Assembly (NCBI RefSeq): GCF_004010195.1
Contig: NC_057718.1
Coordinates: 90,231,274 to 90,282,116 of the forward strand
Direction of reading: 5' to 3'
Length of the DNA: 50,843 nt
Source of the DNA: Chiloscyllium plagiosum
Lineage: Eukaryota
Shown: one piece after another, positions 4,097 through 50,398 of the stretch
Position numbering within the stretch: the stretch's first letter is position 1
How the letters are laid out: every line of letters begins with the position of its first letter
The notes under the pieces: generated by a model
Told to the model about the DNA's origin: nothing
The model's input: the letters and a program-made list of their open reading frames with translations, nothing else
Database searches by the model: none
Made by a program: the position numbers and the translations under genes

Positions 4097-4249
4097 AGCA
4101 GCATTAAGAGGTGGAGAAGTTGATGTTTGGAGAAGGGCCACACCCGAAATGTCGACTTCTCCACCTTCTGATGTTGCCTGGCGTGCTGTGTTCATCCAGC
4201 CTCCTCCTGTCTACTTTGGATCCCAGCATCTGCAGTGTGTTTGTCTCTA
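4097..4249 (+). mobile_element. Old palindromic Penelope-like 3' mini-insertion with decayed hammerhead
   Basis: Inverted arms 4097-4128 and 4147-4178; agaagggccacacccgaaatgtcg; ccagcatctgcagt tail. Confidence 0.7.
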
Positions 4250-4365
4250 GTTTTGGGAAAGCAGGGACATGTTTTAAATATGCGACAACTTAACATGAGT
4301 TGGGAAAATCCTGTTTGCCCATTTGTTTTTGAGCAGAATTACAGAAAGAACGACCCAATGAAATG

Positions 4366-4663
4366 GGATGATATGGTGGCTCAATGGTTAACACTGCTGC
4401 CTCACAGCACTAGGGACCCAGGTTAGATTCCAGCCTCGAGCTACTGTCTGTGTGGTGTTTGCACATTCTCCCTGTGTCTGCGTGGATTTTCTCCAGGGGC
4501 TCTGGTTTCCTCCCATAGTCCAAAGATGTGTGGGTTGGGTGGATTGGCCATGGGAAACGTGGGTTTACAGGGATGGGATAGGTTTTGGTCGGGATGCTCT
4601 TCAGGGGGTTGCTGTGGACTTGATGGGCCGAATGGCCTGCTTCCACACTGCAGGGATTCTATG
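4366..4663 (+). mobile_element. HE1-type V-SINE
   Basis: tggtggctcaatggtta head, V-domain, ggattctatga tail. Confidence 0.9.
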
Positions 4664-5727
4664 AAAGCTGTAATTTCTGATCTGAACTTGTTGATCCTTT
4701 TGTAAATGTTTATAATGCACATCTAAACTAAGGTGAATAAGCCACTGCTCACTTTGTGTAGACTCACATCATACTGCATTCTTTTAAACACAGGGTACGG
4801 GACCAATCACTGATTCCTTTCTTTGTTTTGTTTTCCTAAAGTAAGCTGCAGGTTTTTAGAGACTTTCTTTTGGGAACGCGGCACTGGATTATGGATCCCC
4901 CTTGAGTTCATGGAATATGCAGACTGCATTGATCTTCACTTATTATATCAGACGTCAATAATCCAAGAGAGGAAGAAGGATATTGGAACCAAAGTGTGAC
5001 TGACGTCTTGAATTCTGAAATGTAGCTAACGAATAAAGTTGTTGAGAAATGAGGCCCCCCGTGCATCTTTAACTCCAATCGCCTTTGTGATTTTTTTTTC
5101 AAAATGCCTTTCGTCATATTTTCAGGTGTTCATGTTCCGCAAAGCTTTGGATGTGGTGGTCCCTGTGATATTCCCAAGTATGGCACAACATTCAGTTCTA
5201 CGCGGTTATCATTCAGAACCTGTACGGCTAACTATAGGGCACTGCGAAGGGCAGCCATCAGGAAACAAAACAATAACTTATGTCATATCCCTCTGAATTT
5301 TCACATTGGTTATAAAAAAGTTGTACAGTGTTAATCCACCGAGAGAAAAAAAAACCCCGTGGGAACGATTGGAAACTGTAGATTTGATAATCAGCCAATT
5401 ACCAAATAGAAACTCTTTATCAAATGCCAAGGACTGGTAATCCAACTGGTTCATGGAATGTCATAACAAATAGATTTAGTTGTATGCTGCAGTGTTATAG
5501 AACATAGAAAACTACAGCACAGAACAGGCCCTTCAGTCCACGATTATCTATTCAAATCCCGGGTTTTTCCCTGCATGAGAAAGTAAAAGAGAAAATGTCA
5601 CTGAAAGAAATTTCCCGCTCCCTTTCTATGTAGTTTCATAACTGTCTCATATCAACTTTTGAGAAGATTTGTAGCTCAGGTTGATGATAAGTATGTAAGT
5701 TAGCTCACTGAGCTGGAAGGTTTGTTT

Positions 5728-5767
5728 TCAGATGTTTCATCACCATATCAAGTAACATCATCAGTGA
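5728..5767 (-). ncRNA. Minimal type I hammerhead ribozyme motif (PLE)
   Basis: Minus strand tca-CTGATGA-t-gttac..gtgat-GAAA-ca-TC-tga; 3-bp stem I; G-U at the base of stem II and ACAT stem III suggest CpG decay. Confidence 0.6.
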
Positions 5768-6259
5768 GTCTCCGGTGAAATGCTAGTGGTATGTCCTGCC
5801 TCTCTATTTATAGGTCTTAGTTACTTAAGGTGGATAATGTCATTTCTGGTTCAACTTTTCTTAAAAGGAAGATAGATAGGATCCAAATTTATGTGTTTAT
5901 TGATGGAGCTCTGGTTAGAATGCCAGGTCTCTAAGAATTCTCGTGCGTGTCTTTGTTTCGCCTGTCCTAGGATGTGTGTGTTGTCCCAGTCAAAGTGGTG
6001 GCCTTCTTTCTCTGTATGTATGAACACGATTTTGACTGGGACAACGCACACATCGTTGGACAGGCAAAGCAAAGACACACACGAGAATTCTTCGAGGCAT
6101 GGCATTCTAATCAGAACTCCATCAATAAACACATCGACTTATTTCCCATCTGCCTTCTCTTGAGAAAATGAACCAAAAATAACATCACCCACCTTGAGCA
6201 ACCAAGACCTATAAATAGGGAGGCGGGACATACCACCAGCGCTTCACCAGAGACTCCCT

Positions 6260-6294
6260 CTGATGATGTTACCCAGTCATGGTGACGAAACATC
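6260..6294 (+). ncRNA. Minimal type I hammerhead ribozyme motif (PLE)
   Basis: CTGATGA-t-GTTACC-cagtcat-GGTGAC-GAAA-ca-TC. Confidence 0.65.
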
Positions 6295-7035
6295 TGAAAA
6301 CAAACCTTCCAGCTCAGCAAGCTAACTTACATACTTATTGTCTATTATGCTAAGGATTTTCTTGTTAAGATTTGATCATTTTAGAGGGCCAACAGCTGAG
6401 AGGTTGATAAAACCCGATTGATCACTTCAACATTACCCAACAGCTCCTTGTCACTTACCCGTCCCCATCAATCCTCCCACATTTGATGTCCTCTGGTTCC
6501 AGTGTAACATGGTTGCTTAGAATTATAGGAAGGCAGGCTCAATTGAAAACGTATAAAGTACTAAATAAACAGGAAACACAAAAGGGACAATCAGTTTCAG
6601 AGATTACTGACAAGAAAAAGTGAAACCGCAGAAGTGAAACAAGAATAATATGATCTTGTTCTCGTAATATCAATGTGATGTCTTCCATTTTATTTTGAAA
6701 AAAATACTTATTGTTAAAGGGAGACTTTTCCCTTGAAAGCCCCTTTTACTTGGAAACAAAACAAAAAAATTATGTGGCGTCCTTCTGAATTTTCACATTT
6801 GTTATAAGTAACTGTACTGTGTTAAACCACCAGATAGACTGAATAAAGAGCCTTCTGAGAAAAACAAAGAGTTCAAAGGATCGGAAAGTGCAGACTGTCA
6901 TTGCGCAGCTCTGAGGAGTTACAGAGTATTGTCATTACACTGAAAGGAGGGGTGTGTGGGATATTCTCACTTCATTGAAGGGGGTTGTGGGAGATTAGCA
7001 TTATATTGTGGGGGGAATGGGATATTGTCATTATA

Positions 7036-7079
7036 NNNNNNNNNNNNNNNNNNNNNNNNNNNNNNNNNNNNNNNNNNNN
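7036..7079. other. Assembly gap (44 N) inside the minisatellite
   Basis: Run of N. Confidence 1.
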
Positions 7080-9662
7080 TGAGTGTGATATTGTCATTAC
7101 ACTGAGAGGGGTGTGTGGGATATTGTCATTACACTGAGGGTGTGTGTGATGTTGTCATTACACTGAGGGGTGAGTGTGATATTGTCATTACACTGAGAGG
7201 GGTGTGTGGGATATTGTCATTACACTGAGGGTGTGTGTGATGTTGTCATTACACTGAGGGGTGAGTGTGATATTGTCATTACACTGAGAGTGGGGTGTGG
7301 GATATTGTCATTACACTGAGGGGGTTGTGTGGGATATTGTCATTACACTGAAAGGGGTGCAGTATATTGTAATTACATTGAGGAGGGTGTGGGATATTGT
7401 CATTACACTGAGGGTGTGTGTGATGTTGTCATTACACTGAGGGGTGAGTGTGATATTGTCATTACACTGAGAGGGGTTTGTGGGATATTGTCATTACACT
7501 GATGGGGATGTGTGGGATATTGTCATTACACTGAGAGGGGTGCAGTATATTGTAACTACATTGAGGAGGGTGTGGGATATTGCCATTACACTGAGGGGTG
7601 TGTGTGATATTGTCATTACACTGAGGGATGAGTGTGATATTGTCATTACACTGAGAGGGGTGTGTGGGATATTGTCATTACACTGAGGGTGATGTGGGAA
7701 ATTGTCATTACACTGAGAGGGGTGTGTGGGATATTGTCATTACACTGAGGGTGATGTGGGAAATTGTCATTATACTGAGAGGTGTTGTGGGGATATTGTC
7801 ATTACACTGAGTGGGGTGTGGGATATTGTCATTACACTGAGGGTGTGTGTGATGTTGTCATTACACAGAGGGGTGTGTGGGATATTGTCATTACACTGAG
7901 AGGGGTGTGTGGGATATTGTCATTACACTGAGGGTGATGTGGGAAATTGTCAATACACTGAGTGGGGTGTGGGATATTGTCATTACACTGAGTGAGGTGT
8001 GGAATATTGTCATTACACTGAGTGAGGTGTGGGATATTGTCATTACACTGAGGGGTGTGTGTGAGATATTGTTATTACACTGAGAGGGGTGCAGTACATT
8101 GTCATTACATTGAGGAGGGTGTGGATATTGTCATTTCACTGAGGGGGTTGTGTGGGATATTGTCATTACACTGAGAGGGGTGCAGTATATTGTAATTACA
8201 TTGAGGAGGGTGTGGGATATTGTCATTACACTGAGGGTGTGTGTGATATTGTCATTACACTGAGGGGTGAATGTGATATTGTCATTACACTGAGAGGGGT
8301 GTGTGGGATATTGTCATTACACTGAGAAGGGTGTGTGGGATATTGTCATTACACTGAGGGTGATGTGGGAAATTGTCACTACACTGAGTGGGGTGTGGGA
8401 AATTGTCATTACACTGAGTGAGGTGTGCAATATTGTCATTACACTGAGTGAGGTGTGGGATATTGTCATTACACTGAGGGGTGTGTGTGAGATATTGTCA
8501 TTACACTGAGAGGGGTGCAGTATATTGTCATTACATTGAGGAGGGTGTGGGATATTGTCATTACACTGAGTGGGGTGTGGGATATTGTCATTACACTGAG
8601 GGGGTTGTGTGGGATATTGTCATTACACTGAAAGGGGTGCAGTATATTGTAATTACATTGAGGAGAGTGTGGGATATTGTCATTACACTGAGAGGGGTGC
8701 AGTATATTGACATTACATTGAGGAGGGTGTGGGATATTGTCATTACACTGAGGGGTGTGTGTGTTGTCATTACATTGAGGGGTGTGTGTGAGATATTGTC
8801 ATTACACTGAGGGGAGTGCAGTATATTGTCATTACATTGAGGAGGGTGTGGGATATTGTCATTACACTGAGTGGGGTGTAGGATATTGTCATTACACTGA
8901 GGGGGTTGTGTGGGATATTGTCATTACACTGAAAGGGGTGCAGTATATTGTAATTACATTGAGGAGGGTGTGGGATATTGTCATTACACTGAGGGTGTGT
9001 GTGTGATGTTGTCATTACACTGAGGGGTGAGTGTGATATTGTCATTACACTGAGAGCGGTGTGTGGGATATTGTCATTACACTGAGGGGGATGTGTGGGA
9101 TATTGTCATTACACTGAGAGGGGTGCAGTATATTGTAACGACATTGAGGAGGGTGTGGGATATTGTCATTACACTGAGGGGTGTGTGTGATATTGTCATT
9201 ACACTGAGAGGGGTGTGTGTGATATTGTCATTACATTGAGGAGGATGTGGGATATTGTCATTACACTGAGGGGGGTTATGGGATATTGTCATTACACTGA
9301 GTAGGGCTGTGTGGGATATTGTCATTACACTGAGGGGGGTGTGGGAAATTGTCATTACACTGAGTGGGGCTGTGTGGGATATTGTCATTACACTGAGGGG
9401 GGTGTGGGTTATTGTCATTACACTGAGTGGGGCTGTGGGATATTGTCATTACATTGAGGGGAGTGTGGAGTATTGTCATTACACTGAGGGTGGAGTGGGA
9501 TATTGTCATTACACTGAGTGGGGCTGTTTGGGAAATTGTCATTACACTGAGTGGGGAAGTGGGATATTATCATTACACTGAGGGGAGTGTGGATTATTGT
9601 CATTAAACTGAGTGGGGTGTGGGATATTGTCATTACACTGAGTGGGGCTATGTGGGATATTG

Positions 9663-9878
9663 CTGAAAATGTGTTGCTGGAAAAGCGCAGCAGGTCAAGC
9701 AGTATCCAAGGAACAGGAGAATTGACGTTTCGGGTATAAGCCCTTCTTCAGGAAGGGCTTCGGGCTTATGCCCGAAATGTCGATTCTCCTGCTCCTTGGA
9801 TGCTGCCTGACCTGCTGCGCTTTTCCAGCAACACATTTTCAGCTCTGAGCTCCAGCATCTGCAGTCCTCACTTTCTCC
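9663..9878 (+). mobile_element. Palindromic Penelope-derived mini-insertion in the minisatellite
   Basis: Inverted arms spanning 9662-9843, ~35 bp tail; TSD tatgtgggatattg at 9649-9662 and 9879-9892. Confidence 0.9.
9724..9751 (-). ncRNA. Minimal hammerhead ribozyme core
   Basis: Minus strand CTGAAGA-a-gggcttataccc-GAAACGTC. Confidence 0.65.
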
Positions 9879-11141
9879 TATGTGGGATATTGTCATTACA
9901 CTGAGGAGGATGTGTGGGATATTGTCATTACACTGAGGGGGGTATAGTATATTGTCATTAAACTGAGTGGGGTGTGGGATATTGTCATTACACTGAGTGG
10001 GGGTGTGGGATATTGTCATTACACTGAGGGGGGTGTGCGTTATTGTCAATACACTGGGGGAAGGTGTGGGTTATTGTCAATAGACTGGGCGCTGTGTGGG
10101 TTTTTTTATTTGTTCAAAAGTTGTATGGGCATAGTCCTTTCACCTAGGGGTGTTGCAAAATCTACATTCTTCATTTTACTTTATCTTTGATTGTGGACTG
10201 AATTGGGTAAAGGAATGTCTGACAACAAACGGCCAAGGAAGGGGTTGCTGTACTTTTAAAACACAAATTACTGGAACTCATTATGTGTGGTGTTTACACT
10301 GTTTTGTTCAAGCAGTGGTGGGGGGGGGGGGGTGTGATGTTTGCGGACTACTACCCTGCTCTGGGGTTCTGTGCACAAAGTTAGATTTTGTCAGCAACAG
10401 GTTGCTGATTGGTTTGTAAAGTTGTGACCAGTTGTGAATGCCAAAAGCCTGATGCCAGTAATCTGATTGCCTCCTGAGTACCTGAAGCTTGTGGGTGTAA
10501 AACAATACTGCCAGAAGTCTTTGGACTTCTAAGAGGGCAGGTGGTGTATCTCTCCAGTACAATGATTTAAGCTTGAAGAAAGCCAATTTATTTTCTCCCA
10601 CTGGTTGCTGGAAGGTGTTGCTTTTAACTATTAAGTCAGAGAATTTATTAGTTTTGGACTAGTTGTTTTGTGCCTCCTTTGAAGAAGTGAAAAAAAAAAC
10701 CTGAGGGTTAAAAAAAAGTCAGAGAAATGAAGGACTTGCACATCCAAAGGAGTACCTGATTAATCTGGAGAACGATGCCGTTGAACAGTATTCCCAGTTT
10801 TTTATTCCTTACCTACAATACATTTTTATGTCTGTATATGTGGGTAGGAGGGATTTAGAATGGGGCAAGAGATTTAACAATTGGAGTTATATCTTGGACA
10901 ATCATAGTAGTTTATCTGCAGATTGAATATTTCATTTTTAGTAAATAGTATTTCTTGTTAAGTACAGAAACCTAGACTGTGTTATCTGTCAACCTGTGCC
11001 AATCAGAGAAGTAAATTAGTGACTTTGCGCGTATCAATTGTAGTTTTTTACATTTGTAGGGCTTAATTTCCCATGTTTTTAAATCAGAGTGGTACTGGAA
11101 AAGCACAGCAGGTCAGGCAGCATCCGAGGAGCAGAAAAATC

Positions 11142-11169
11142 GACGTTTCAGGCAAAAGCCCTTCATCAG
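11142..11169 (-). ncRNA. Minimal hammerhead ribozyme core
   Basis: Minus strand CTGATGA-a-gggcttttgcct-GAAACGTC. Confidence 0.6.
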
Positions 11170-11174
11170 GAATA

Positions 11175-11202
11175 CCGATGAAGGGCTTTTGCCCGAAACG
11201 TT
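11175..11202 (+). ncRNA. Variant hammerhead core (U4C, GUU site)
   Basis: CCGATGA-a-gggcttttgccc-GAAACGTT. Confidence 0.45.
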
Positions 11203-12649
11203 GATTTTCCTGCTCCTCGGATGCTGCCTGACCAGCTGTGCTTTTCCAGCACCACTCTGATCTAAACTCTGGTTTCCAGCACCTGCAGTCCTCACTTTTT
11301 TGCCTACTTAATTTCCCATGTGCTGTCCTAGTGAGGTGTGACAGTATGAGAAATTTTCTTTACAGGGAGAAACTATGTGGTATTATTGTTACATTGAGGG
11401 GTTACGGAATAACATCATATCAGTGAGAAAGTATGGGATATAGTCATTACAATGAGGGAGTGTGGGATACTGTAAACAATTTTATCCTATGATCGCAAAT
11501 GTTCTTGCACTTAAATGGGAATTAAATGAGTAGAAGTTTTGACCGTGTTATTGGTCATCTGCAGCCGACATCTGAGTTTAACTCTTGTTTCAGAAGGGAA
11601 TGGCTTGTTATTTTAATGCTATCATTGAGGCTGTAAGATTTGGATTTCACCTCCAGTAGCTGCAGTGCTGACGGGTGGGTCAGCATTGGGTAGAAGGCAA
11701 TGTTAGTTGACCAGAGGGAAGTGTGTACTCCTTTCTCCCCTTTCAGACCTTGCAACCCTCTTCTCAATCCAAAACACCATTGAGGGTATGCCAATGTTCC
11801 ACTCTCTATATGGATCCCACCTCCCAAATCCAAGCCCTGTTCCCAGTGCATTGGCAAGCATAGCTACCCATAAGCAGGCCTTTTGACAGTGGTCATTAAA
11901 AATATTCTTAAAACCTACTTGAATATGGTAAAATCAGTTGTGTAAGGGAACTAGGAAATGATTGCTTAAATCTAATGTATGTTAAAATATAGTTCTCTGC
12001 TATATTGTTAATGTGGATAGATATTGTCTGTAAAATCTACTGAAGAAATCTCATCCGGAGAACATTCTGGACAAACCATGAAATCAACTTGAGATATTTT
12101 TGGACCAAGTGGAAATGTTCCACATGGAGCTTGAACTGATTTGGAAACATATTTATCCCTTATCCCAGCTGTCTGTTTTGTTCCGACATAAGCTGAAGCC
12201 TGTAACAAACCATAGCAGTATTCAGTATTCTTCTGATACTGAACGCCTGACTGTATATGGCCTATTTTATAGGAGGGTGAATTAAACTGCAAACCATATC
12301 TTCTTTCAACCTTATTCCTTTTTACATGCACCTCCCTATGTGAAACAATCGCTATTATTTCCCAAGTAAACTTTGTTGTAGCACTAGATCAAATGCCTCC
12401 TTGAAATCCAAGTACAGTACATTCGCCATTTCCTCTTTATCTACAGCTCACCTTACTTCTTCAGAGTATAGGAAGTTCCTGACTTCCAACTGTCCAACTT
12501 TTTAATGCATGTACTTCTGATGGGATCTCATGCAAGCATGTCTGCAAACTGTAGGGCCTCAGACTCAATCTGGACCAGCCTGACCTTGTGGATGTATTCC
12601 TCTATTGGCTGTAAGGATGATATTGGGAATGGTTTCGGCCGTAGAGGCA

Positions 12650-13393
12650 AAGAGTCATAGAGATGTGCAGCATGGAAACAGACCCTTCGGTCCAACCCGT
12701 CCATGCCGACCAGATATTCCAACCCAATCTAGTCCCACCTGCCAGCACCCGGCCCATATCCCTCTAAACCCTTCTTATTCATGTACCTATCCAGATGCCT
12801 TTTAAATATTATAATTGTACCAGCCTCCACCACTTACTCTGGCAGCTCATTCCACACATGTACCACCCTCTGCGTAAAAATGTTGTCCCTTAGGTCTCTT
12901 TTATATCTTTCCCCTCTCACCCTAAGCCTATGCCCTCTAGTTCTGGACTCCCAGAGCCTAGGGAAAAGACTTTGCCTATTTACCCTATCCATGCCTCTCA
13001 TAATTTTGTAAACCTCTATAAAGTCACCCCTCAGCATCCGACGCTCCAGGGAAAACAGCCCAGCCTGTTCAGCTTCTCCCTATAGCTCAAGTCCTCCAAC
13101 CCTGGTAACATCCTTGTAAATCTTTTCTGAACCCTTTCAAGTCTAGCAACATCTTTCCGATAGGAAGGAGACCAGAATTGCATGCAATATTCCAACAGTG
13201 GCCTAACCAATGTCCTGTACAGCTGCAACATGACCTTCCAACTCCTGTACTCAATACTCTGACCAATAAAGGAAAGCATACCAAACTCCTTCTTCACTAT
13301 CCTATCTACCTGTGAGTCTACTTTCAAGGAGCTATAAACCTGCACTCCAAGGTCTCATTGTTCAGCAACACTCCCTAGGACCTTACCATTAAA
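12650..13393 (-). mobile_element. CR1 LINE 3' fragment
   Basis: LYRTLVRPLLEYCMQFWSPSYRKDVARLERVQKRFTRMLPGL; ctctatgactct 3' end. Confidence 0.93.
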
Positions 13394-13479
13394 TCAACTG
13401 AGTTCCTTCTGGGCATAAAGCCATAATGAATGATCGTAAATTGGTCTTCTGACTGAGCAACCAGTCAAGGAAAGGCCAG

Positions 13480-15010: not shown

Positions 15011-17002
15011 TAAGACCATAAGACATAGGAGTGGAAGTAAGGCCATTCGGCCCATTGAGTCAACTCTGCCATTCAATCATGGCTGCCATTCAATCATGGC
15101 TGATGGGCATTTCAATGCCACTTATCTGCACTCTCCCCGTATCCCTTAATTCCTCGTGAGATCAAGAATTTATCAATCTCTGCCTTGAAGATATTTAACG
15201 TTCCAGCCTCCACTGTGCTCCATGGTAATGAATTCCACACCCTTTCTGGCTGAAGAAATGTCTCCTTGTTTCCGTTCTAAATTGACCCTGTCTAATTCTA
15301 AGGCTGTGCCCACGAGTCCTAGTCTCCCTGCCTGAGGAAACAAATTCCCAGCGTCCTTTCTTAGCCATGCATTATCTTGTAAGTTTCTATTAGATCACCC
15401 CTCAACCTTCTAATCAATCCCAGGATCCTCAGCCTTTCATCGTATGTTAGGCCTACCATTCCAGGGATCATCCGTGCGAATCTCCACTGGACATGCTCCA
15501 GTGCCAGTATGTCCTTCCTGAGGGGTGGAGCCCAAAATTGGACACAGTATTTTAAATGAGGCCTAACTAGAGCTTTATAAAGTCTCAGTAACACATCGCT
15601 GCTTTTATATTCCAACTCTCTTGAGATAAATGATGACATTACATTTGCTTTTTAACCACGGTCTCTACATGCAAGTCAATCTTTAGAGAATCCTGGACTA
15701 GCACTCCTAATCCCTTTGTACTTTAGCTTTATGAATTTTCTCACCGTTAAGAAAATAGTCCATGCCTGTATTCTTCTTTCTGAAGTGCATTACCTTGCAT
15801 TTGCTCACGTTGAATTTCATCAGCCATTTCTTGGACCACTCTCCTAAAACTTTTCTGCAGCCTCTCACTCCTCAGAACTACCTGCCTGTCCACCTAACTT
15901 CGTATCATCGGCAAACTTCACCAGAATGCCCCCAGTCCCTTCATCCAGATCATTGATATATAAAGTGAACAGCTGCACCCCCAACACTGAACCCTGTGGG
16001 TCACCACTTGCCACTAGCTGCCATTCCAAAAAAGAACATTTTATCCCAACTCTCTGCCTTCTGTCAGACAGCCAATCCTCAATCCATGCCAGTAGCTCAC
16101 CTCGAACACCATGGGCTTTCACCTTACTCAGCAGCCTCCCATGAGGCAGCTTATCAAATGCCATTTGGAAGTCTAGGTAGATAACATCCACTGGGTTTCC
16201 CTGGTCTAACCTACTTGTTACCTCTTCAAAGAATTCTAACAGGTTTGTCAGGCACGATGTCCTCTTACTAAACCCATTCTGATTTGTTCTAATCCGACCC
16301 TGCACTTCCAAGAATTTAGTGTCTAAAATGTTCCATCTTTTGTCTTGATCCTTTCTTGAACAAAGGGGGCACAACAGCGATTTTCCAAACATCTGGGACT
16401 TTCCCTGACTCCAGTGATTTTTGAAAGATTACAACCAACGCCTCTGGTATTTCTTCAGCCACCTCCCTCAGAACTCTAGGATGTAGCCCATCCGGGCTAG
16501 GAGATTTATCAATTTTGGACCTTTTAGCTTTTCGAGCACTTTCTTTTTTGTAATGGCTACCATACTCAACTCTGCCCCCTAACTGTCCTTAATTGTTGGG
16601 ATATTACTCAAACCTTCCACTGTGAAGACTGACGCAAAGTACTTATTAAGTTCTTCAGCTATTTCCTTATCTCCTAGCACTAGCTTCCTGCTTCAATTTG
16701 GGGTGGCCCAATTTCTACTTTTGCCTCTCGTTTGTTTCTTATATATTGAAAGAAACTTTTACTATCATTTCTGATATTGCTGGCTCGCTTACTTTCATAT
16801 TTGATCCTCTCCTCCCTTATTTCTCTCTTTGTTATCCTCTGCTTGTTTCTGTAGTCTTCCCAATCTTCTGATTTCCCAGTGCTCTTAGCCACTTTATAGG
16901 CTCTCCCTTTTTATTTGATACATTTCCTGATTTCCTTTGTCAGCCATGGCTGTCTAATCCCCCCCCGGATAATCTTTCTTTTCTTTGGGATGAACCTCTG
17001 TA
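15011..17002 (-). mobile_element. CR1 LINE ORF2 (RT) and 3' end, disrupted
   Basis: [47 protein letters not shown]; tcttatggtctta 3' end. Confidence 0.95.
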
Positions 17003-19953: not shown

Positions 19954-20790
19954 TGTCTCAATGCTACTCCTTTTATAAGGTTATGTTGTCCTTGGTCTTT
20001 TTCAAATGGGGTCGTAAAAGGCAGAGGTGCTGACATGGCTACCAGAGATCGTCTAAGTTAACAATCAGGGGAAGCCTTCAGACATCTTTTAAAACAGTTG
20101 TACAATGAAAGGGGAGTGGCCAGTTCTCCCAGCTCAGGGTTTTTTCTAGTTTGGTTTAATTTTAGCAGTTAGGAGCTGCTGGGGACAGAGAAGCAACTAC
20201 ACCAAAAAGCAGTTCCATGCTTCAGCAATGATCCCTTCACTGATCCTTTCTCTCTAACTTCTCTCCTATAAGAACATGGGTTTGAATTTACCTTTTTTGC
20301 CAAGGGGTGTGTTTATGGGGATGTTGCAAGAAATCGGAACAGCATCATTAAGTTGTGACAGAGTCGGGTGGGTGTTCAGATTGGCTGCGTTATTTTATAT
20401 TCTGTTCTCTTTTGTTCGTGCTTCATTCAGTAGTCTGCAAATAAATCCTGATTAGAGTGGTGCTGGAAAGGCACAGCCGGTCAGGCAGCATCCAAGGAGC
20501 AGGAAAATCGCCGTTTCAGGCAAAAGCTCTTCATCCGGAATGAAGGCAGGGAGCCTCCAGGGTGGAGAGATAAATGGGAGGGTGGGAATGGGGCTGGGGC
20601 GAAAGTAGCAAAGAGTACAATAGGTGGATGGGGGTGGGGATGGAGGTGATCGGTCAGAAGGTTGGAACTGGGGAAGGTTGCAAATAAATCCTGTTTTGTT
20701 TAAAACTGAGTGGTTTGATCTGCCTCAAACACCTAAAAAAGTTAGGTTCTGGGCCACCTTCTTAAAGGGGTTCTGGCCTGGTCCATAACA
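19954..20790 (+). mobile_element. Solo LTR (TG...CA)
   Basis: tgtctcaatgctactcc ... ggcctggtccataaca; homologous to the reverse complement of 34060-34696; AATAAA at 20439. Confidence 0.8.
20451..20678 (-). mobile_element. Penelope-like 3' UTR fragment with decayed hammerhead
   Basis: 15-bp TSD tgcaaataaatcctg at 20436-20450 and 20679-20693; homologous to the 11083-11170 arm plus ~130 bp of further upstream sequence. Confidence 0.85.
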
Positions 20791-21182: not shown

Positions 21183-21386
21183 ATGGAAATGTGTTGCTGG
21201 AAAAGCGCAGCAGGTCAGGCAGCATCTAGGGAACAGGAGAATCGACGTTTCGGGCATTAGCCCTTCTTCAGGAAGGGCTAATGCCCGAAACGTCGATTCT
21301 CCTGTTCCCTAGATGCTGCCTGACCTGCTGCGCTTTTCCAGCAACACATTTCCATCTCTGGTCTCCAGCATCTGCAGACCTCACTT
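21183..21386 (+). mobile_element. Young palindromic Penelope-derived mini-insertion
   Basis: Perfect 86-bp inverted repeat 21181-21266 / 21272-21357; 14-bp TSD acccctctttaaag at 21169-21182 and 21387-21400. Confidence 0.95.
21244..21271 (-). ncRNA. Minimal hammerhead ribozyme core (canonical)
   Basis: Minus strand CTGAAGA-a-GGGC-taat-GCCC-GAAACGTC; palindromic ACGU stem III. Confidence 0.75.
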
Positions 21387-23763: not shown

Positions 23764-24112
23764 GACCCTCTGCTTTTTCCAAAATTGCTTACAATAGTTT
23801 TATTTTTAAAAAATTGCATGCAATGGTAGACCCTTGAGGTTTGTTGAAACTTTACTGCTGGAACAGCACAGCAGTGCAGACGCTGGAGATCAAAGCTGCA
23901 ATAAAGTTTCAGCTTTGATCTCCAGCGTCTGCAGACCTCACTTTCTCCTTGAGGTTTGTTCCCTAAGTTCTTAATTTTTCATAAGTATTGTTCTAGACCC
24001 TCTGCTTTTTCCAAAATTGCTTACAATAGTTTTATTTTTAAAAAATTGCATGCAATGGTAGACCCTTGAGGTTTGTTCCCTAAGTTCTTAATTTTTCATA
24101 AGTATTGTTCTA
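23764..24112 (+). repeat. Tandem duplication of a 117-bp unit; first copy carries an insertion
   Basis: Unit 1 is 23764-23995 (232 bp), unit 2 is 23996-24112 (117 bp); identical apart from the insertion. Confidence 0.92.
23846..23946 (+). mobile_element. 101-bp rearranged Penelope 3' tail insertion (no hammerhead)
   Basis: TSD ccttgaggtttgtt at 23832-23845 and 23947-23960; tail ctccagcgtctgcagacctcactttct. Confidence 0.88.
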
Positions 24113-29400: not shown

Positions 29401-29534
29401 AAAAAAGCAAATTACTGCAGATACTGGAATCTGAAACCAAAAGAGAAAATGCTGGAAAATCTCAGCAGGTCTGGCAGCATCTGTGAGGAGAGAAAAGAGC
29501 TGACGTTTCGAGTCTAACTGACCCTTTGTCAAAG
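29401..29534 (-). mobile_element. Penelope-like 3' mini-insertion (separate family) nested in L1 ORF2
   Basis: Minus strand gatgctgccagacctgctgag...ttccagtatctgcagtaatttgctttt tail; TSD ctgtctg at 29394-29400 and 29535-29541. Confidence 0.85.
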
Positions 29535-29536
29535 CT
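29498..29536 (-). ncRNA. Minimal hammerhead ribozyme with U3-A8 variant core
   Basis: Minus strand agct-TTGACAA-a-GGGTC-agtta-GACTC-GAAACGTC-agct: 4-bp stem I, 5-bp stem II, ACGU stem III. Confidence 0.72.
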
Positions 29537-33380: not shown

Positions 33381-33384
33381 ACAA

Positions 33385-37158: not shown

Positions 37159-37621
37159 GTTGATGTGCTCATCCAGACAGACATTGGGCTCAATGGCTTG
37201 CCTCTTTGCTGCAAATTCTATTTAATTCAAATCCCTCCAAGGTTCATCTTTCCCTACTTCTCAGTTCTCCTTCAGTATTCCCAAATATGTGAAGCCCAAT
37301 GATTAAGGAGAGAGAACTGTTAGGAACTGAAGTCTAACTTAGCAGAAAGAGACTGTATGTATCCAGTAAATTGAGGGATCTTGCAGAAAGTCCCAAGGAC
37401 TCCAATGGCATTACTTTGGGAGACAAAAGAGATTTGGAACCAGAACGCAGCAGATTGTGGCATCAGCAGAAAGGGCGAAAAGAAACATTGAAGTGAGCAA
37501 CAGAAGTGAAGTTCACCGTCAAGAAGAAAAGAGAATTCTATTTCGAAGATGTACCTGGATGTCAGGGACATTGCGGGTGGAGCAAAAATTTGGAGACTTC
37601 GATTCCTGCCTCGCACGACTA

Positions 37622-38858: not shown

Positions 38859-39167
38859 GTCTATCGAGTCCACACTGACCCTCTGAACAGCTTCCCACCC
38901 AGACCCACCCCCTACCCTATCCCTGTGACCCTGCATTTCCACTGGCTAATCCCCTAGCCTGTACATCCCTGGACACTATGGGGCAATTTAGCATGGCCAA
39001 TCCAACTAACCTGTGCATCTTTGGACTGTGGGAGGAAACTGGAGCACCTGGGGGAAATCCACGCAGACATGGGGGGAATGTACAACCTTCACGCAGTCAC
39101 CTGAGGCTGGGATCGGACCCAGGTCTTTGGTGCTGTGAAGCAGCAGTGCTAACCACTGTGCTGCCCT
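38823..39167 (-). mobile_element. HE1 SINE
   Basis: tcatagaacccctacagtgtgg tail to aaccactgtgctgccc head. Confidence 0.9.
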
Positions 39168-39445
39168 AAAATTGAAATTTTAAAAGCAAGGATGCTTATA
39201 GTTCATCCCCGCACCCATCTTCTTGATTACAAATCGACTCACTGGAACAGTCACTATTTTTCCAAACTCACTAACATTAAAAAAAAAGCTTCTCTTGGCA
39301 AAATGGCGGCGATTCTGTAGAACTGCTGTGGACTGCTCTGCCCAACAGACAAGGCATGCTGGTGTTTTTTGCCATCCCTGGCCAATGTATGTGGAGGAAT
39401 TATTAATTTAAAACCTTACAGAACACATATTTGGGAGTGGGGAGG

Positions 39446-40159
39446 ATGCCAAAGGAAAAGGAGCAGGCAAATAGCAGCAGGGAGGACACTCCCTTGCAGC
39501 ACCTACAACACCAGAGACTGCAGCCAACAGCAGCCTCTCCTGAACCCCCCAGGGACCTGACAGACTCGCAGGAATTGGCTGCGGAAATGGAGAAACTTAC
39601 CTTGAAAGTTGCGGCTGCGATTGAGGAAATCCGTGGGGAGATTCGTGCCCAGGTCCAACCTATCGCATCCATGCTGCAGAAGCATGAGCAGGAGATCAAA
39701 GGCCTCGGGGAGAGGGTAGAGGAGGTGGAGGGTCGAAATAAGGCCTCGGAAGCTGCGATGGAGTCCTCATCCAGTCAGATCCAGGTGCTGGAGCGAGAGG
39801 TGTGGGCTTTGCGAAACCATATTGACGACCTCGACAATTGAGGTCGGAGGATAAATCTCCGAATTGTCGGGCTCCCTGAAGGTGAAGGTGAGCAGCCAGT
39901 CATAGAAACTTCCAGATCCCTGGGAAAAGATCCACAGGCGCTGCTGTATAAGGGGTCAAAAATCATGTTTTTCCAGGATTTTTCAGCAGCTGTAATCCCA
40001 AAGAGGAAGTCCTTCGATGAAGTTAAAAAGAGGCTGAGGAACCTGGGCATCCAGTACTCCATGAGATACCCCGCAGTACTTCGTTTCAGCTACCAGGACT
40101 CAGTTTATACATTTGACTCGGCGAATAAGGCTAAAAACTTTGTGGACACTTTAAAATAG
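39446..40159 (+). pseudogene. L1 ORF1 (nonsense codon at 39839, RRM deletion near 39895)
   Basis: MPKEKEQ..., DDLDN*GRRINLRIVGLPE, YKGSKIMFFQDFS, YSMRYPAVL. Confidence 0.88.
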
Positions 40160-40772
40160 ACAGATTGGCCCGAAGAATATGGTTAATGTTTGTGCTCTTT
40201 TCTATCTTTCCCCATGTTTTCCTTTTTTTTTATTCCTTTCTTTCTCCCTAATAATTTCCTTTTTGGAAAGTGGGAGAGAAATCTTTGGAATAAGTTGTTC
40301 CTTTTTTTAATAACTGGATTTTCTGATGGGAAATTTTGTAGATGTTCTTTGCTGCCTCTCTCCCTTTGTTTTTTGTTTGTTCTGCTTCTCTTTTAGTCAC
40401 AAGTTGGGTTGTCATGAAGCCAGGGATGGGTGGAGGGCTCATCCTGACGTTGTCTTTTTTTCTGTTGATTTAAGGATCATCTCCTTGTTTATTTCTGGCC
40501 TAAGGCTGGGGCACAGTCCAGGTTTGAAGGAGCTGTGAAGAATTGGATGGGTAGGGCGAGTGCCCCCTATGGGCAGGGAGAAGAGTCTTCCATTCAAGGT
40601 TCTATAGTTGGTTTTCTTTGTAGTTTTTTGGTAGTAATAGTTGTTTCTAGTTATGATAGAGTAGTTTTTGTATATATAGTTTTTCGATGCTATGAGTCTT
40701 TATTTACTTATGCTCAGTGCTTTGTAAGCAGGGTTCTCCCTCCAGGGGGTTCAAGGATGTCTGAAAGGGGAT

Positions 40773-43700
40773 ATGGCTAAGTGTCTTGTTAAATGGTGCA
40801 CCTGGAACATTAAGGGAAGTCATTCGCCTGTTAAAAGGAAAAAGTTGTTTTCTAGCCTTAAGAGGGAAAGGGTTGATATTGCTTTGTTGCAGGAAACCTA
40901 TCTTGATGATGGGGAACATCTGAAATTACAACAGGGGGGTTACGACCAGGTGTTCTTTTCATCCTTTACTACTAAAAGTAAGGGAGTGGCGGTATTTATC
41001 CAGAAAAACCTTCCGTTCACATTATTAGAGCAGGTGAAAGATGAGCAGGGATGGTTTGTGATACTTAAAGCCCTGACACATGAGGAGGAATATGGCATTT
41101 TAAATGTCTACTGTCCTCTGGCACATCCCCTCAAATTTTTGATTTGGGCTTTCTGTTAGTTGAGTGCTTTTGGAACACGGCACATTATTATAGGGGGGTA
41201 TTTTAATTGTCTTTTGGATCAGACAGTAGACAGGATGCCTTCTGGGCCCCCAACTATTGCTTCACAGGCCAAGCAGATGGTTGACTTATGCGAGGAGTTG
41301 GGACTGGTGGATATTTGGAGAGGTCTTCACCCTACTGGCAGGGACTTTACCTTTTTTTCAAACCCACATAAATGTCACACGAGGATTGACCTCTTTCTGG
41401 CTCCCTCAGCCCTTCTGGCTTCGATTATGAGTTATAAAATTGGGAATATAACTATCTCTGATCACGCAGCAGTATATTTGGAGGTTAAGGCCAAGAGTGA
41501 AGGGCTAGGTTTGCGGCACTGGCGTTTGGACCCTTTTCTCCTTCAGGATTCCAAATTTGTGGAATACATTTTGAAGGAGTTTCAGGAATTCTTGACTATC
41601 AACTCAGGCATGGCTAGTAGTCCGTCCATGCTATGGGAGACTGCTAAGGCCTTTGCTAGGGGATTAGCTATTTCCTATTCGGCTAGCTGGAAACGACAGA
41701 AGGAGGAACAGCAGCGTCTATTTGAGACGCGGTTGAAAGCCGCCGAGGCAGCACATTATGCGCGGCCTTCGGTGACTAAGCTACAGTGGATCACGGCCCT
41801 TCGGGCTGCCTTCAACCAACTTCCTGGTGAGTTTTATAAGGAGTTGAAAGGGATTCTGTCAGGGCTGATGTTGGAGATGTACAATCACTCCTATATGCAT
41901 GAATGCCTACCGCCATCTTTGAGAGATGCTAATATTTCATTAATTCTTAAGAAGGGGAAAGTTCCTGAGGAACATACAGGCCCATCTCTCTATTAAATTC
42001 AGATTTCAAGATTCTGTCCAAGATCCTGGCGCTGAGATTGGAAAGGGTGTTGCCCCATATTATTAAAGAGGACCAGACAGGCTTTATAAAGGGCCCTAGG
42101 TCCTCTAATAATATTAGAAGGTTGCTGAATGTGGTTCAAGTTTGTCAGCAACGATCGATTCAGGGGTTGGTGATTTCCTTAGATGCAGAGAAAGCATTTG
42201 ACCGGGTGGAATGGCCGTATCTTTTTTATGTCTTAGAACAGTTCGGGTTGGGTGGAGTCATTGCTAGGTGGGTGGAGGTTTTATATCACCACCCTCTGGC
42301 AGCGGTCATCGCCAATGAGGTGAAGTTTGTGAATTTTACGATTGGTAGGGGTAGTCGGCAAGGCTGCCCCCTCTCACCGTTGTTGTTTACGTTGGTGATA
42401 GAGCAGCTGGCAGAGGCCATTCGTCAGAACGTCCACATAACCACTCCAGAAGTGGGATCGAGGGCAAACAAGATTACACTGTACGCAGATGATGTCCTTC
42501 TGTTTTTATTGAACCCAACACCTCCGTACCCCATTTGATACAATGTATCAATTAATTTGGGGCTATTTCAGGATATAAGATCAACTTTTCAAAATCGGAG
42601 GCTGTGCCTTTGGGGAACCTTAAGGATGTGCCAGAAGTTGAAGGTGGCTCTAAGTTCCCTTTAAAGTGGTCACGGGCAGGGTTTTGGTACCTAGGCATTT
42701 TTATAACCCCCAGGTTTGATGTTATTTCGGACTAACTTAGCTCACTTGCTTGACAATACTAAGCGGGATCTCCAGAGATGGGAGGCTCTTCCAACTTCAT
42801 GGCTGGGCCGAATATCTCTCATTAAGTTGAATGTTCTTCCTCGTTTGCTTTATCCCATGTATATGCTCCCTATAATGTTTCCCAGGTCAATGCTGTGGAA
42901 GCTTATGGGGTGGATTTGGTTCCTTCGTCTGGCATCGTGGGCGGCCCCTCATCAAACTTACTAAATTGCAGTTGCCTCAAGGAGGGGGAGGAGTTGATTT
43001 CCCAGACATCAGAAGGTATCAATTGAGTTCCCTGCTGTCCTTTGTCTGCGATTGGATAGGTAACGATCCAAACGCAATGTGGCTGGATATTGAGGCCTCC
43101 CAAGCAAAGTGCCCTCTTATTAACCTGTTGTTCAGGGATGAGGACAGTTATGGACCACTGCTGGAACCCCATTGTCATTAGTACAGTCAAGGCATGGAGG
43201 GCGATGCGTCAGAGTGAGGGTTGTTTATCCAAGACGTCGCCACTTATTCCTATAGTTGGCATACCAGGGTTCCAACCAGGGATAATGGACTCAGGGTTCA
43301 AACTATGAGCAGCGAGAGGAGTTTCTAGTTTAGGAGACTTGTTTGAGGGGGAGGTTATGATGTCTTTTGAGCAACTAAGCTACAAATACCGGCTGCCCAG
43401 CAAAGATGTTTTCCATTTTTTTCAGGTTAGGGATTTCATCCAGAAGAAGACTATGCTTCTCACTAAGCCCTATAAGCCCGATACAGAGAGGTTGTTGCTA
43501 CGCCCCACAAGCACCCTTTCAGTTAGTGCTCTCTATCGCCTGCTGGGTGGCAGGGCCTGGCAGGATATTAACCAGTTATGTGAGGTCTGGGAGCAAGAGT
43601 TGGGAGTGGAGATCTCTTCTGAAACATGGGAGAACATATGGGAGAATACTCGAAAGATCTCAATCTGTAATAGGACATGCACTACGCAGTTAAAAGTTCT

Positions 43701-44180
43701 GCACAGGGCTCATCTGGCACCAGACCGTCTGGCGAAGTTTAAAAAAAGGGGAATCTTCAGTGTGCCCCAAATGTAAAATAAGTGTAGGTACTCTTACCCA
43801 TTGCTTTTGGACTTGCCACAGGCCCAGTGTTTATTGGAGCGCGTGGTGGGAGATAAGGAGGGTATTGAGAACTGAAGTCAAAGTAGTCCCGATATCTCTC
43901 CACTTATGTCTACCGAATTTACCATCTTTAGACGGACATGGGAAGAAACTTTTTAAATATTCTTGCATGCTGTGCATGGAAGAATATTCTGATGAATTGG
44001 GTGTCTGAGAACCTGCCGGGCTTGCTGGGATGGCAGAAATTCATTATGGAGCACATTTCCTTGGACCTTTTTACAAATGTGGTGCACAACACAACAGACC
44101 ATTTTTATAAGACATGGCAGCCCTACCTGAGTTATTTGGATATAGATTTATCAGTTATCTTAACTAGGGTGTTTGTTTAA
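40773..44180 (+). pseudogene. L1 ORF2 (APE-RT-Cys knuckle), disrupted
   Basis: WCTWNIKG, LQETY, ISDH, SLDAEKAFDRVEW, RQGCPLSPLLF, LYADD, CPKC...HCFWTC; deletion near 41815. Confidence 0.93.
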
Positions 44181-45459: not shown

Positions 45460-45945
45460 AAAAAAGAGAACAGAATATTTTCTAAACAGTGAAAAAGCCA
45501 GAAACAGGAGACCAGAATTCCAAAATGGTTTAGGAGTCCAGGTACATAAACTATTTTAGTGTCATAACTAGGTATTGGAAGTATTCAAACAGATCAATAC
45601 CATGCAAGTCTGTAGACCTAGAGGCTTCGAAGACAAGGAGTAGAAATCATCTTAATGTGTACAATGCCATGGTTAGAGCATGAGTTGGAGATGGCGGTGT
45701 TGGACTGGAGTGGACAAAGTTAAAAATCACACAGCACCAGGTTATAGTCCAACAGGTTTATTTGGAAGCACCAGCTTTCAAAGCACTGCTCCTTCTTCAA
45801 GTGGTTCAACCACCTGTTGAAGAAACAGCAGTTCAAAAGCTAGTGCTTCGAAATTAAACCATTTGGACGATAACTTAGTGTTGTGTGATTTTTAACAATG
45901 GTTAGAGCAGACCTAGAGTGCTGGGAGCAGTTTCTGGAGTCAAAA
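45460..45945 (+). mobile_element. Highly decayed CR1 fragment, host of the 45681 insertion
   Basis: agaatattttctaaacagtgaaa, tttaggagtccaggtacata, atggttagagcagacctagagtgctgggagcagtt. Confidence 0.55.
45681..45897 (-). mobile_element. Palindromic Penelope-like mini-insertion (further family) with decayed hammerheads on both arms
   Basis: Inverted arms spanning 45719-45896, ~38 bp tail; TSD atggttagagca at 45669-45680 and 45898-45909; cores resemble CTGAnGA-aggagc..gct-GAAAGCTA. Confidence 0.8.
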
Positions 45946-45948
45946 ACT

Positions 45949-47689: not shown

Positions 47690-47797
47690 AAAGAAAGAAA
47701 ATTACTGAGAGCACTGGACATCTGAGATAAAAGTTACAAATACTCAGCAGGTCAGGCAGCACCAGGGGAGAGAGGAAAGTGAGTTACTGTTTCAGGC
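47690..47797 (-). mobile_element. Decayed Penelope-like 3' tail
   Basis: aatactcagcaggtcaggcagcacc...gagttactgtttcagg. Confidence 0.55.
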
Positions 47798-48244
47798 CAC
47801 TCTAGTATCAGCACTGTGGAAAGGATAGCTATCATTTGGACAGGGTTAGAAATCACGTGGTGTTAATGATAGTTGGCCTCTAACCCTTCATTCCCGTAGC
47901 TGCAACTAAAGTGACATCCGCTCGCACAGCTGATGATGAAAAGCGAACATTAATTTACAAACATGGGAACGTATTGATAACGGAACATAAATATCAGCAC
48001 CAAACTGTTCCCATGATGTTTGCCTTACTCCTGACCCTTCCACCAGGAATAGGAGCTGCCCCAGGGTCCGCAGCTGGCCCGGAGGCAGTCTGCCCCCTCA
48101 TGGAGATGGATGGATTTCTAGTCTGGGGCATATAACCTCAGGGCCATTTGCAGCTAGAGGGCACAGACCTGTTGAGTGTACCCCCACCTTGGTTCAACCT
48201 CAGTGGGTCGAACTCCCAAGGGGCTGTGGGTGGGGTTGGAGGAT

Positions 48245-48600
48245 CTAGAATCATAGAATCCCTACAGTGTGGAAGCAGGCCCTTCAGCTCAACAAGTCCT
48301 CACTGACCCTCCGTAGAGTAACCCAACCAGACCAATTCCTCCTACCCTTTTTTATATCTGGCTAATGCACCTAACCTATACACCCCTGAATACTATGGGC
48401 AATTTAGCATGGCCAACCCACCCAACTTACACATCTTTGGACTGTAGCAGGAAACCGGAGCACTCAGAGGAAACCCACGCAGACAGGGGGAGAGTGTGCA
48501 AACTCCACACAGACAATTGCCTGAGGCTGAACTGAACCTGGGCCCCTGGCGCTTTGAGGCAGCAATGCTAACCACTGACCACTGACCCACTATGCCACCG
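48245..48600 (-). mobile_element. HE1 SINE
   Basis: tagaatcatagaatccctacag tail, V-domain, head. Confidence 0.9.
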
Positions 48601-48872
48601 CAAGTCTGGACATGTCTGTAGGAGATACCTAGGGGGAGCGGGGTGGGGGGAGGGGGGAGGGTGGGGACAAGGTGTGGTAGCTAAATGGTTTCTCCTCTGG
48701 CCTGACCCTTTCTGTATGAGAAAATGGGCAGTGGAGGGGGGGAGGGCAGATGGGATAACCTCATCGTTGGCACTCAACATGATGGCTGCAGTGATGGAGC
48801 ACAGGAGCAGGGGTCGGCATGGAAACCCAGCAGATCCTGAGAGTGCGAGACCCTGGCTGTTCATGTCAGTTG

Positions 48873-48997
48873 AGGAGAAAGTGAGGTCTGCAGATGCTGG
48901 AGATCAGAGCTGGAAATGTGTTGCTGGAAAAGCGCAGCAGGTCAGGCAGCATCCAGGGAACAGGAGAATCGACGTTTCGGGCATAAGCCCTTCTTCA
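48873..48997 (-). mobile_element. Non-palindromic Penelope-derived mini-insertion (same family as 9663 and 21183)
   Basis: 14-bp TSD gttcatgtcagttg at 48859-48872 and 48998-49011. Confidence 0.93.
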
Positions 48998-48998
48998 G
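48971..48998 (-). ncRNA. Minimal hammerhead core (5' strand of stem I absent)
   Basis: Minus strand CTGAAGA-a-GGGC-ttat-GCCC-GAAACGTC. Confidence 0.65.
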
Positions 48999-49699
48999 TT
49001 CATGTCAGTTGCCAAACTGCCCATTTGGCAGCCAGAGGCTTGCATTCCAGAAACAGCGTGGCACCATCAGCTGTTGGTGGTTGGCCCAGAGCCTTTGATA
49101 GACCTGCCTGCTCCTCCTGGGTCCACCTGTGCATTTATATGAAGTCATTAATGGCTGGCACCACACAGTGCCTGGGCCTGAGTAAGGTGCCACCTCTGTG
49201 GCACTCTTCCAAGCCCAGGGGACACTTCTTACCCCACCAGCTGTGAAGATATAGCAGTGACGCACTCACCAGAAGGTGAACCCTCCCCCCCCCCCCCCCC
49301 CCGGATTCTACTGTACAGAGAATACCCACCGTGGTTTTGGTATCTGAGCTGGTGGAGGGTGCAGGAGGCAGTCTTGCCCCTCCATCCATTGAAGGCCCTC
49401 AGAGGTGGAGAAATAGACGGGGTCATGTGCGGCTGCTTTCTCCAAAGTGGAGATGGTGCAGACGCCAATGGTCCCTGCTGGAGACGAGAAAGACGGTGAG
49501 CTATGAATTAGAGGCAGACACTTGGGCATGTGATGGTTACACTCACTGTGCCAGGAATGGGAGTGCAGGGCAGGACCTGACAACAAATTTTATTTGGTTG
49601 CCATGATATGGAGGTCTCAGCATCATCACATGAGCAATCAGAGCCCCCACCTGCTTAGCCAATGATTCTCTTCACACAGGGGATGGATATTGGGCACCC

Positions 49700-49870
49700 A
49701 AGACTATAAGACATAGGAGCAGAAATTAGGCCATTCAGCCCATCGAGCCTGCTCCACCATTCAATCAAGGCTAATAAGTTTCTCAAGCCCATTCTCCTGC
49801 TTACTCCCCGTAACCCTTGATCCCCTTAACAATCAAGGAGCTATCTATCTCCATCTTAAATATACCCAAC
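49700..49870 (-). mobile_element. CR1 3' UTR fragment
   Basis: taagacataggagcagaaattaggccattcagcccatcgag. Confidence 0.8.
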
Positions 49871-50267
49871 CTCCCGGTGCAGCTGTCCCTGCCCTGCTGT
49901 GGAGATTATCTCCTGGGATGAGGGATTGAATGAGATGAAAAAGACTGGTTCAACTGCTAGAGGTAGGGGAAAGGGGGTGAGGTGTCCTAAGCGAGTGAAT
50001 AGACAGTGCAAAGGGCCATGCAGGGTTAGCAATATGTGGGAAGTGATGGTGGGTAAGATTGAGTGAGGTAAGACGCAACAGCGAGAGGTGTAGAGTTGGA
50101 AATTTGATGGTAGTGTATGTCGTGGTGGATATTTCTGACTTCAGGCTCCTCAATTCGTGGGACGGCCCAGTACTGAAAGGTGTCTAATCCAGTTGGACTT
50201 CCATTGGTTCTTCAACCTGCAGTGTTATGTATCACTGTCAGAATATGAATATACCATATATACTCAG

Positions 50268-50398
50268 GATTTGGAGGTGCCAGTGTTGGACTGGGGGGGA
50301 CAAAGTTAAAATTAACACTAAACCAGGTTATCGTACAACAGGTTTACTTGGAGGCACTAGCTTTTGGAGCGCTGCGCCTTCATGACGACCACCTGATA
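50268..50398 (-). mobile_element. Penelope-like mini-insertion, same family as 45681
   Basis: ttggaggtgccagtgttggactgg...cactagcttttggagcgctgcgccttcat. Confidence 0.75.

Follow-up and report, generated by a model that had tools for sequence, protein, structure and literature searches.

Short Penelope-derived insertions of Chiloscyllium plagiosum as probable run-off copies from the capped end of an uncleaved RNA

Which RNA is copied in the cycle of Penelope-like elements (PLEs), sense or antisense, cleaved or uncleaved, and how do their head-to-head palindromes form? This open point is raised by a 50,843-nucleotide stretch of the Chiloscyllium plagiosum genome (RefSeq GCF_004010195.1, contig NC_057718.1, positions 90,231,274 to 90,282,116; hereafter the window, one stretch within an assembly of 3.56 Gb). 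An earlier note, made from its sequence, had described eleven Penelope-derived insertions there, most of them small and hammerhead-bearing, and we find Penelope-derived pieces at all eleven of these places. The elements themselves are of a described kind: accounts exist of minimal hammerheads in dispersed truncated PLEs (PMC4209133), of inverted pseudo-long terminal repeats (pLTRs) with a tail (PMC8557442, PMC3846280) and of PLE-derived retrozymes (10.64898/2026.07.22.740005). Their value lies in the large natural sample of junctions that they offer on this point. We argue from these junctions that most of the mini-elements are probably strong-stop insertions, made off the capped 5' end of an uncleaved PLE RNA.

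We sampled 1.288 Mb of non-gap DNA, comprising the window, 200 kb around it and eleven blocks of 80-100 kb on other contigs, chosen at round coordinates. The insertions fall into four families, A to D. Family A accounts for ~2.4% of the sampled DNA at 137 insertions per Mb, a third of them long hairpins. Positions within elements take C3, where the hammerhead core begins, as 0; the family A cut site lies after +27 to +28.

Coding parents and the ends of copies

Longer family A copies extend upstream through a C-rich untranslated region (UTR) into the C-terminus of a GIY-YIG endonuclease (EN) and an open reading frame (ORF) for reverse transcriptase (RT) with a CxxxxCxxC linker. Twenty parent loci were taken by longest open frame among 150 scored matches; in 14 of these listed loci the ORF is followed by the hammerhead on the same strand, and the rest are gap-broken or lack one part. 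The RT domain (Pfam RVT_1) scored 35.3 bits in locus L159 (above the cut-off), 33.9 in L130 and 27.7 in L162 (below it), and GIY-YIG (PF01541) reached 21.3-21.5 bits (E 3e-4), just below its cut-off of 22.6, with the motif visible in the translations. A PDB sequence search using the ORF returned 0 matches. The zinc-finger-like CxxxxCxxC motif stands between RT and EN in families A and C; the corresponding motif of Neptune is also found in Nematis. Family C and older relatives of family B join RT/GIY-YIG remnants, and family D joins a different GIY-YIG type. Other features of the parent are a partial pLTR tandem (L221, whose 5' structure runs UTR, hammerhead, pLTR, tail, ORF start), an inverted 5' copy (57 head-to-head pairs) and a tail (bimodal 3' ends). 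Because long copies run unbroken from the RT/GIY-YIG ORF into the module, each mini-element reads as the end module (hammerhead, pLTR, tail) of a coding PLE. The earlier proposal of very abundant elements mobilized by PLE RT/GIY-YIG is upheld; one exact 36-mer has 28,555 genomic copies (control 0). Three family A copies (L124, L126, L123) also hold short tandem reiterations of a GIY-YIG coding segment adjoining assembly gaps, which represent either template slippage or an assembly artefact.

To locate copy ends, 237 of 241 family A arms were mapped against 27 natural long copies (four were left out for low score or short 3' reach), with breakpoints accurate to a few bases. Target-site duplications (TSDs) of at least 8 bp flank 51 of 151 uncensored family A insertions versus 2 of 151 controls, and range from 8 to 16 bp with a mode of 14. 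The 3' ends form two clusters, at +85-95 and +120-127, and set a tail of ~35 nt, in keeping with the ~29-38 bp noted earlier. These clusters match the two internal RT starts bounding the tail that are described for a PLE enzyme that nicks and extends both strands (PMC11167929).

The 5' ends are concentrated too. Per base, the hazard of ending is 0.06-0.09 at -10..0 versus 0.002-0.006 elsewhere (0.002-0.004 at the cut site), which bears out the suspicion that these are not random truncations. About half of the arms (122 of 237, with ~15 expected) begin in -10..+9, as do 45 of 116 solo copies; five of the 237 start at the ribozyme cut site (+26..+33), and 43 keep the TATA-like box region to -37. 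In family C, 21 of 44 arms begin at -12..-3. The plot of copy length, ends and TSDs that the earlier note had called for thus contains a discrete short class of module size (90-130 bases), together with a smooth truncation background.

The commonest family A start is the A of TCATTC at -4, a sequence that is initiator-like by the initiator consensus, and this A lies ~32 nt behind a TATA-like box. A TATA-like motif occupies -33..-37 in 19 of 27 long family A copies and -35..-37 in family B (3 matches), and family C has TATAAA at -38..-40 (8 of 8 motif matches). Genome-wide pattern counts, which cover exact young copies, gave 6,080 young family A cores that begin at -4 after a non-templated letter and 1,121 that begin at -6. 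By hand tally of the first 100 matches listed per pattern, the letter before A(-4) is G in 64, A in 19 and T in 17, versus G 17, A 33 and T 50 at the -6 control (Fisher p ~1e-11). With 59 joins to element-like sequence or duplicates removed, G remains in 24 of 41 (p 4e-5 vs 0.28). In family C the A at -8 follows a G in 61 of 100 (322 matches; p ~2e-10). Capped full-length insertions of L1 are recognized by an additional G (PMC11702581). One base can be named as the likely start site in each of two families: A(-4) in family A and A(-8) in family C.

We favour run-off from capped RNA because 5' ends pile up at an initiator-like A ~30 nt behind a TATA-like box, carry an extra G and form no pile at the cut site. 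The box and initiator would constitute a promoter just before the hammerhead. Reverse transcription would start at the element's internal sites, ~90-130 nt from the RNA 5' end, and the copy would likely run off the capped end of an uncleaved RNA starting 4-8 bases before the core; a C would be added opposite the cap, and the extra G would be its complement. Priming of a single strand would give solo copies, while long copies would start at the downstream pLTR and be truncated in the ordinary way. Uncleaved RNA is a PLE substrate in vitro (PMC11167929).

The same ends could be ascribed to ordinary 5' truncation after downstream-pLTR priming, with an RT pause or end-joining hot spot at the hammerhead's front edge and a G added by RT or repair without template or cap. 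Several features suit that explanation: the peak is broad, G is also common at -1, 43 arms extend past the hot spot, with smooth decay beyond it, and local self-complementarity gives recurrent microhomology junctions, one in 1,159 copies. We nonetheless judge it unlikely. The hazard is at background at +30 and +20, the points at which an RT would run into the 3' strands of stems I and II; as the TATA-like box shifts between families A and C, so does the offset of the peak; the G excess appears at -4 and not at -6; and solo copies, which have no partner arm, pile up as well.

Run-off at the cap has evidence to contend with. The 5' peak spans -10..+12 rather than a single base. A second control, at -1, is also G-rich (67 of 100); 42 of these are one recurrent templated junction, and with 25 G among the other 58, G addition may extend beyond the cap. 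The T counts of the controls are inflated by C>T decay in long copies. Family D has TATAAA at -47..-53 (5 of 6 matches) and too few breakpoints for the test. Long copies run into assembly gaps and are hidden there, so the short-to-long copy ratio is biased. The two arms of a palindrome are nearest relatives in only 8 of 41 cases, though closer on average (0.089 vs 0.147). A TATA-less internal promoter has been reported for D. virilis Penelope (PMC2377424). Finally, among seven sequencing runs, four of which gave 0 reads and so count neither way, RNA evidence on the module comes from one poly(A) single-cell run, a data type unable to show linear or circular monomer RNAs. Its read depth rises ~sevenfold at the module's front edge, with the largest listed front loose end at -4; no pile of molecule ends was seen at the module in that run, and 93-94% of reads continue into unrelated sequence, as expected of passengers in host transcripts.

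Palindromes, tandems and the hammerhead

At a grouping limit of 60 nt, 176 family A insertions resolve into 116 solo copies, 57 head-to-head palindromes, 2 tandems and 1 complex. One tailed arm faces one tail-less arm in 55 of the 57 palindromes; this asymmetry, TSDs of 8-16 bp and varied junctions differ from the symmetric terminal inverted repeats, fixed TSD length and shared junction of a miniature inverted-repeat transposable element (MITE). The junction with 1,159 occurrences is found in three subfamilies, and its arms match at the subfamily site in 93 of 100 (hand tally). Among 25 fetched copies the outer ends vary, and the tail sits on the shorter, loop-less arm by 22:3. Three subfamilies show the same junction, each with arms that match and outer ends that differ, which argues that each palindrome is built anew. 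A replicating MITE-like family was ruled out for this junction by the varied outer ends and the matching arms per subfamily. Fold-back of a tail-primed single cDNA was likewise rejected as the main route because it would put no tail on the loop-less arm, where 22 of 25 copies have it. Palindromes would instead arise by twin priming: both target strands would prime copies of one RNA, and these would be joined through microhomology of 2-4 nt. The pairing of one tailed with one tail-less arm fits priming at the two internal RT starts.

Beyond these classes we identified four further spaced two-unit tandems, each with its own junction. Two-unit tandems join the body at ~+190 to +260 with ~-4..-7, each differently. 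In L269 (1242-1630), one insertion with a 15-bp TSD, a unit runs from +90 to A(-4), followed by a G and then body from +258 back to C3; a private variant is shared by both units, and the second begins at A(-4) after the extra G. Such mini-tandems would result if synthesis jumped from the cap to a point within the body's first 60-260 nt.

Could the template instead be RNA of non-coding truncated copies that retain the promoter, giving the short class non-autonomous parents for one generation? Arms that keep the TATA-like box (43 of 237) are far commoner than copies with the tail-body junction (336 exact matches) and would supply such parents. The lizard enzyme uses RNA only if it extends far past the RT start sites (PMC11167929), whereas such copies end at the tail, and the mini-tandems hold body sequence found only in full transcripts; we give this version little credence.

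The earlier note had suggested an independent, non-autonomous and retrozyme-like population: short and perhaps circular RNAs that hammerhead dimers would release by cleavage and PLE proteins would return to the genome. A discrete size class, the density of hammerhead cores, the few head-to-tail mini-tandems and the derivation of Xenopus retrozymes from PLE pLTRs (10.64898/2026.07.22.740005) all lend this idea some appeal. The mini-elements are colinear with the ends of coding elements, head-to-tail units are almost absent (2 tandem and 1 complex of 176, plus the four with unique junctions), and units do not end at the cleavage site (the 5 of 237 arms above). Most copies lack the TATA-like box, which 43 of 237 keep, and identical palindrome junctions are shared by subfamilies whose outer ends differ, with the tail side biased 22:3. 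An independent population of this kind therefore seems very improbable. One tandem joint seen in two contig sets from putative RNA runs was considered as a retrozyme unit and dismissed, as it matches only 2 genomic places.

The features of minimal type I hammerheads (core, bulge, stem II, palindromic 15.2-16.2) are present, and four families with different stems keep the same core. As the earlier note had anticipated, a motif search is productive: a strict scan gave 48 matches in the 1.288 Mb and none in the reversed control or in any of three shuffled controls, a density of ~37 per Mb or roughly 1e5 genome-wide if extrapolated. An Rfam scan of the window returned no hammerhead family and only sub-threshold miRNA-hairpin matches. 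For 3 of 4 cores tested, the monomer is predicted to fold no better than shuffles. Core positions decay like their neighbours (0.041 vs 0.051), a comparison that shows no post-insertion selection on the core and counts further against retrozyme-like RNAs. The young family B copy of the window (29495-29536, minus strand) and sample copies C3 and C6 show U3-A8 core covariation, with a compensatory stem II change between copies; such core covariation has been described for Schistosoma PLE hammerheads.

Short copies are likely dead ends because they lose the TATA-like box. Other marks point the same way: the insertion at 48873 lacks the 5' strand of stem I, palindromes of the 21183 type are predicted to bury the core in an 85-bp hairpin (-187 kcal/mol), and the core decays like its surroundings. 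Long hairpin copies are a possible source of double-stranded RNA in host transcripts.

A broader proposal, which we regard as evenly balanced, is that PLEs replicate through a retrovirus-like strong-stop step. Sense, uncleaved RNA from a TATA/initiator promoter would be copied to run-off at the cap, a jump would then be required, and failed jumps would have been integrated by the hundreds of thousands; the hammerhead, at the very beginning of the mRNA, would be a switch for decapping, one that withdraws RNA from the template pool and does not itself generate the template.

The eleven insertions of the window

Family A is represented at 9663, 11077, 20451, 21183, 23846 and 48873, with 4097 a distant relative; 29401 belongs to family B, 45681 and 50268 to C, and 5657 to D. 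The features, palindromes being given without strand, are:

4097..4250, plus strand: old head-to-head pLTR pair, ~70% identity to family A; degenerate hammerhead, no exact TSD
5657..6000, minus strand: inverted arm of family D; remnant of the GIY-YIG C-terminus, TATAAA-containing 3' UTR, hammerhead (core from 5764, CG>CA), pLTR, tail
6021..6320, plus strand: family D direct arm; GIY-YIG C-terminus 6025-6171, TATAAA 6210, hammerhead core 6260, tail-less pLTR
9663..9877: family A palindrome in a 30-bp minisatellite; tail-less arm from -3, tailed arm from +8; TSD 9648-9662 / 9878-9892
11077..11306: older family A palindrome; intact minus-strand core at 11169; TSD 11062-11076 / 11307-11321
20451..20678, minus strand: older solo copy of family A that retains ~110 nt of UTR upstream, with the TATA-like TTTATC; core with 2 mismatches; TSD 20436-20450 / 20679-20693
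21183..21386: young perfect family A palindrome; 85-bp stem, tail on the plus arm; TSD 21169-21182 / 21387-21400
23846..23946: palindrome of family A, very short; each arm is truncated past the hammerhead, leaving no ribozyme; TSD 23832-23845 / 23947-23960
29401..29536, minus strand: family B solo copy, tailed; U3-A8 hammerhead variant, 4-bp stem I, beginning at an A four bases before the core (putative start site); TSD 7 bp
45681..45897: palindrome of family C; cores of the GC-UA type, one mismatch in each; TSD 45669-45680 / 45898-45909
48873..48998, minus strand: young solo copy of family A that spans C3 to the end of the tail; core intact, stem I without its 5' strand; TSD 48859-48872 / 48998-49011
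50268..50398, minus strand: family C copy, tailed; degenerate core, no exact TSD

Exact TSDs of 7-15 bp, reported earlier for seven sites, flank eight of the eleven: 9663 (15), 11077 (15), 20451 (15), 21183 (14), 23846 (14), 29401 (7), 45681 (12) and 48873 (14); none was found at 4097, 5657 or 50268. The hammerhead motif had been assigned to most sites. It is mismatch-free in five (9663, 11077, 21183, 48873 and, as the U3-A8 variant, 29401) and carries 1-2 mismatches in three more (5657, 20451, 45681); it is degenerate at 4097 and 50268 and absent at 23846. A mismatch-free core together with at least 2 bp of stem I is present at 3 of 11 sites. The description of most insertions as non-coding and 100-230 bp long does not extend to 5657, a 664-bp inverted pair; its length and GIY-YIG endonuclease coding remnants exclude it from the mini-elements.

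An identical 117-bp stretch occurs twice within 23764-24112, once with the 23846 insertion and once empty (23996-24112). The empty duplicate, 230 bp downstream, holds the TSD once. Either the stretch was duplicated locally or the assembly has placed two alleles next to each other; in the latter case the insertion would be polymorphic and recent. The element at 9663 interrupts a minisatellite of ~90 copies of 30 bp with strong G skew (7083-10087), and a 44-base N gap lies at 7036-7079. Beyond the first list, we noted a weak hammerhead-like core (909-935, minus strand), a decayed pLTR remnant (47729-47800) and a small hairpin (22169-22219).

Other repeats share the window. Two decayed L1-like elements with fragments of ORF1 and of an endonuclease/RT ORF2 lie at 25784-31326 (minus strand) and 39400-44010 (plus strand), the first of which contains the 29401 element and a SINE-like repeat (SINE, short interspersed nuclear element). 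Many tRNA-SINE-like repeats occur in both orientations (2800-3017, 4360-4650, 17650-18240, 28670-28980, 36816-39160, 48244-48540), and CR1/L2-like RT fragments at 13031-13354 and 15865-16428. A probable host exon (5127-5272; open frame, AG before) suggests that part of the window may be intronic.

Comparison with known systems

Retroviral minus-strand strong-stop DNA is likewise a short cDNA made near the RNA 5' end that must jump; it differs in being tRNA-primed and not integrated. Closer relatives are the Neptune-type EN+ PLEs (PMC8557442, PMC3846280), which share RT followed by GIY-YIG with a CxxC linker, a partial tandem pLTR, an adjacent inverted 5'-truncated copy, a 30-40 bp tail at one end, TSDs and solo pLTRs. 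The available accounts of those elements report high truncation without a cap-terminated class, whereas the majority here is a 90-130 nt module with a fixed front end. Head-to-head palindromes are explained in PMC3846280 by self-priming on an antisense template, unlike our reading of those in this genome.

Metazoan PLE hammerheads, as described in PMC4209133, agree in the core, the unpaired base after A9, the G10.1-C11.1 pair, the palindromic 15.2-16.2 and the U3-A8 variant; they too are mostly single dispersed motifs of truncated PLEs, some on opposite strands and close together. Their reported number is 2,000-9,000 per genome, against ~37 strict cores per Mb here. The template in that paper's model is a cleaved or circular RNA, and our junctions show no such thing. 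Non-LTR retrozymes (PMC7229834; 10.64898/2026.07.22.740005) resemble the mini-elements in being non-coding, in their type I hammerhead and in arising from or near PLE pLTRs. As described there, they form head-to-tail arrays cut to monomers; the present copies occur singly or as head-to-head pairs, and the cut site is not where they begin.

Neither the TATA spacing nor the extra G of PLE junctions was found in the literature covered, a scope outside which lie the supplements of PMC11167929, PMC4209133 and the preprint 10.64898/2026.07.22.740005. L1 twin priming and extra-G junctions, in the account of PMC11702581, offer a parallel in inversion with microhomology, a TSD that is kept and an extra G at the capped end, with the difference that L1 starts at its poly(A) tail. 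The nearest biochemical counterpart is the Anolis Poseidon element PAc, for which PMC11167929 describes in vitro two internal RT starts bounding the tail, extension of both strands, use of uncleaved RNA and a product length set by the RNA 5' end. The natural RNA start is not mapped in the main text of that study; the junctions collected here point to one.

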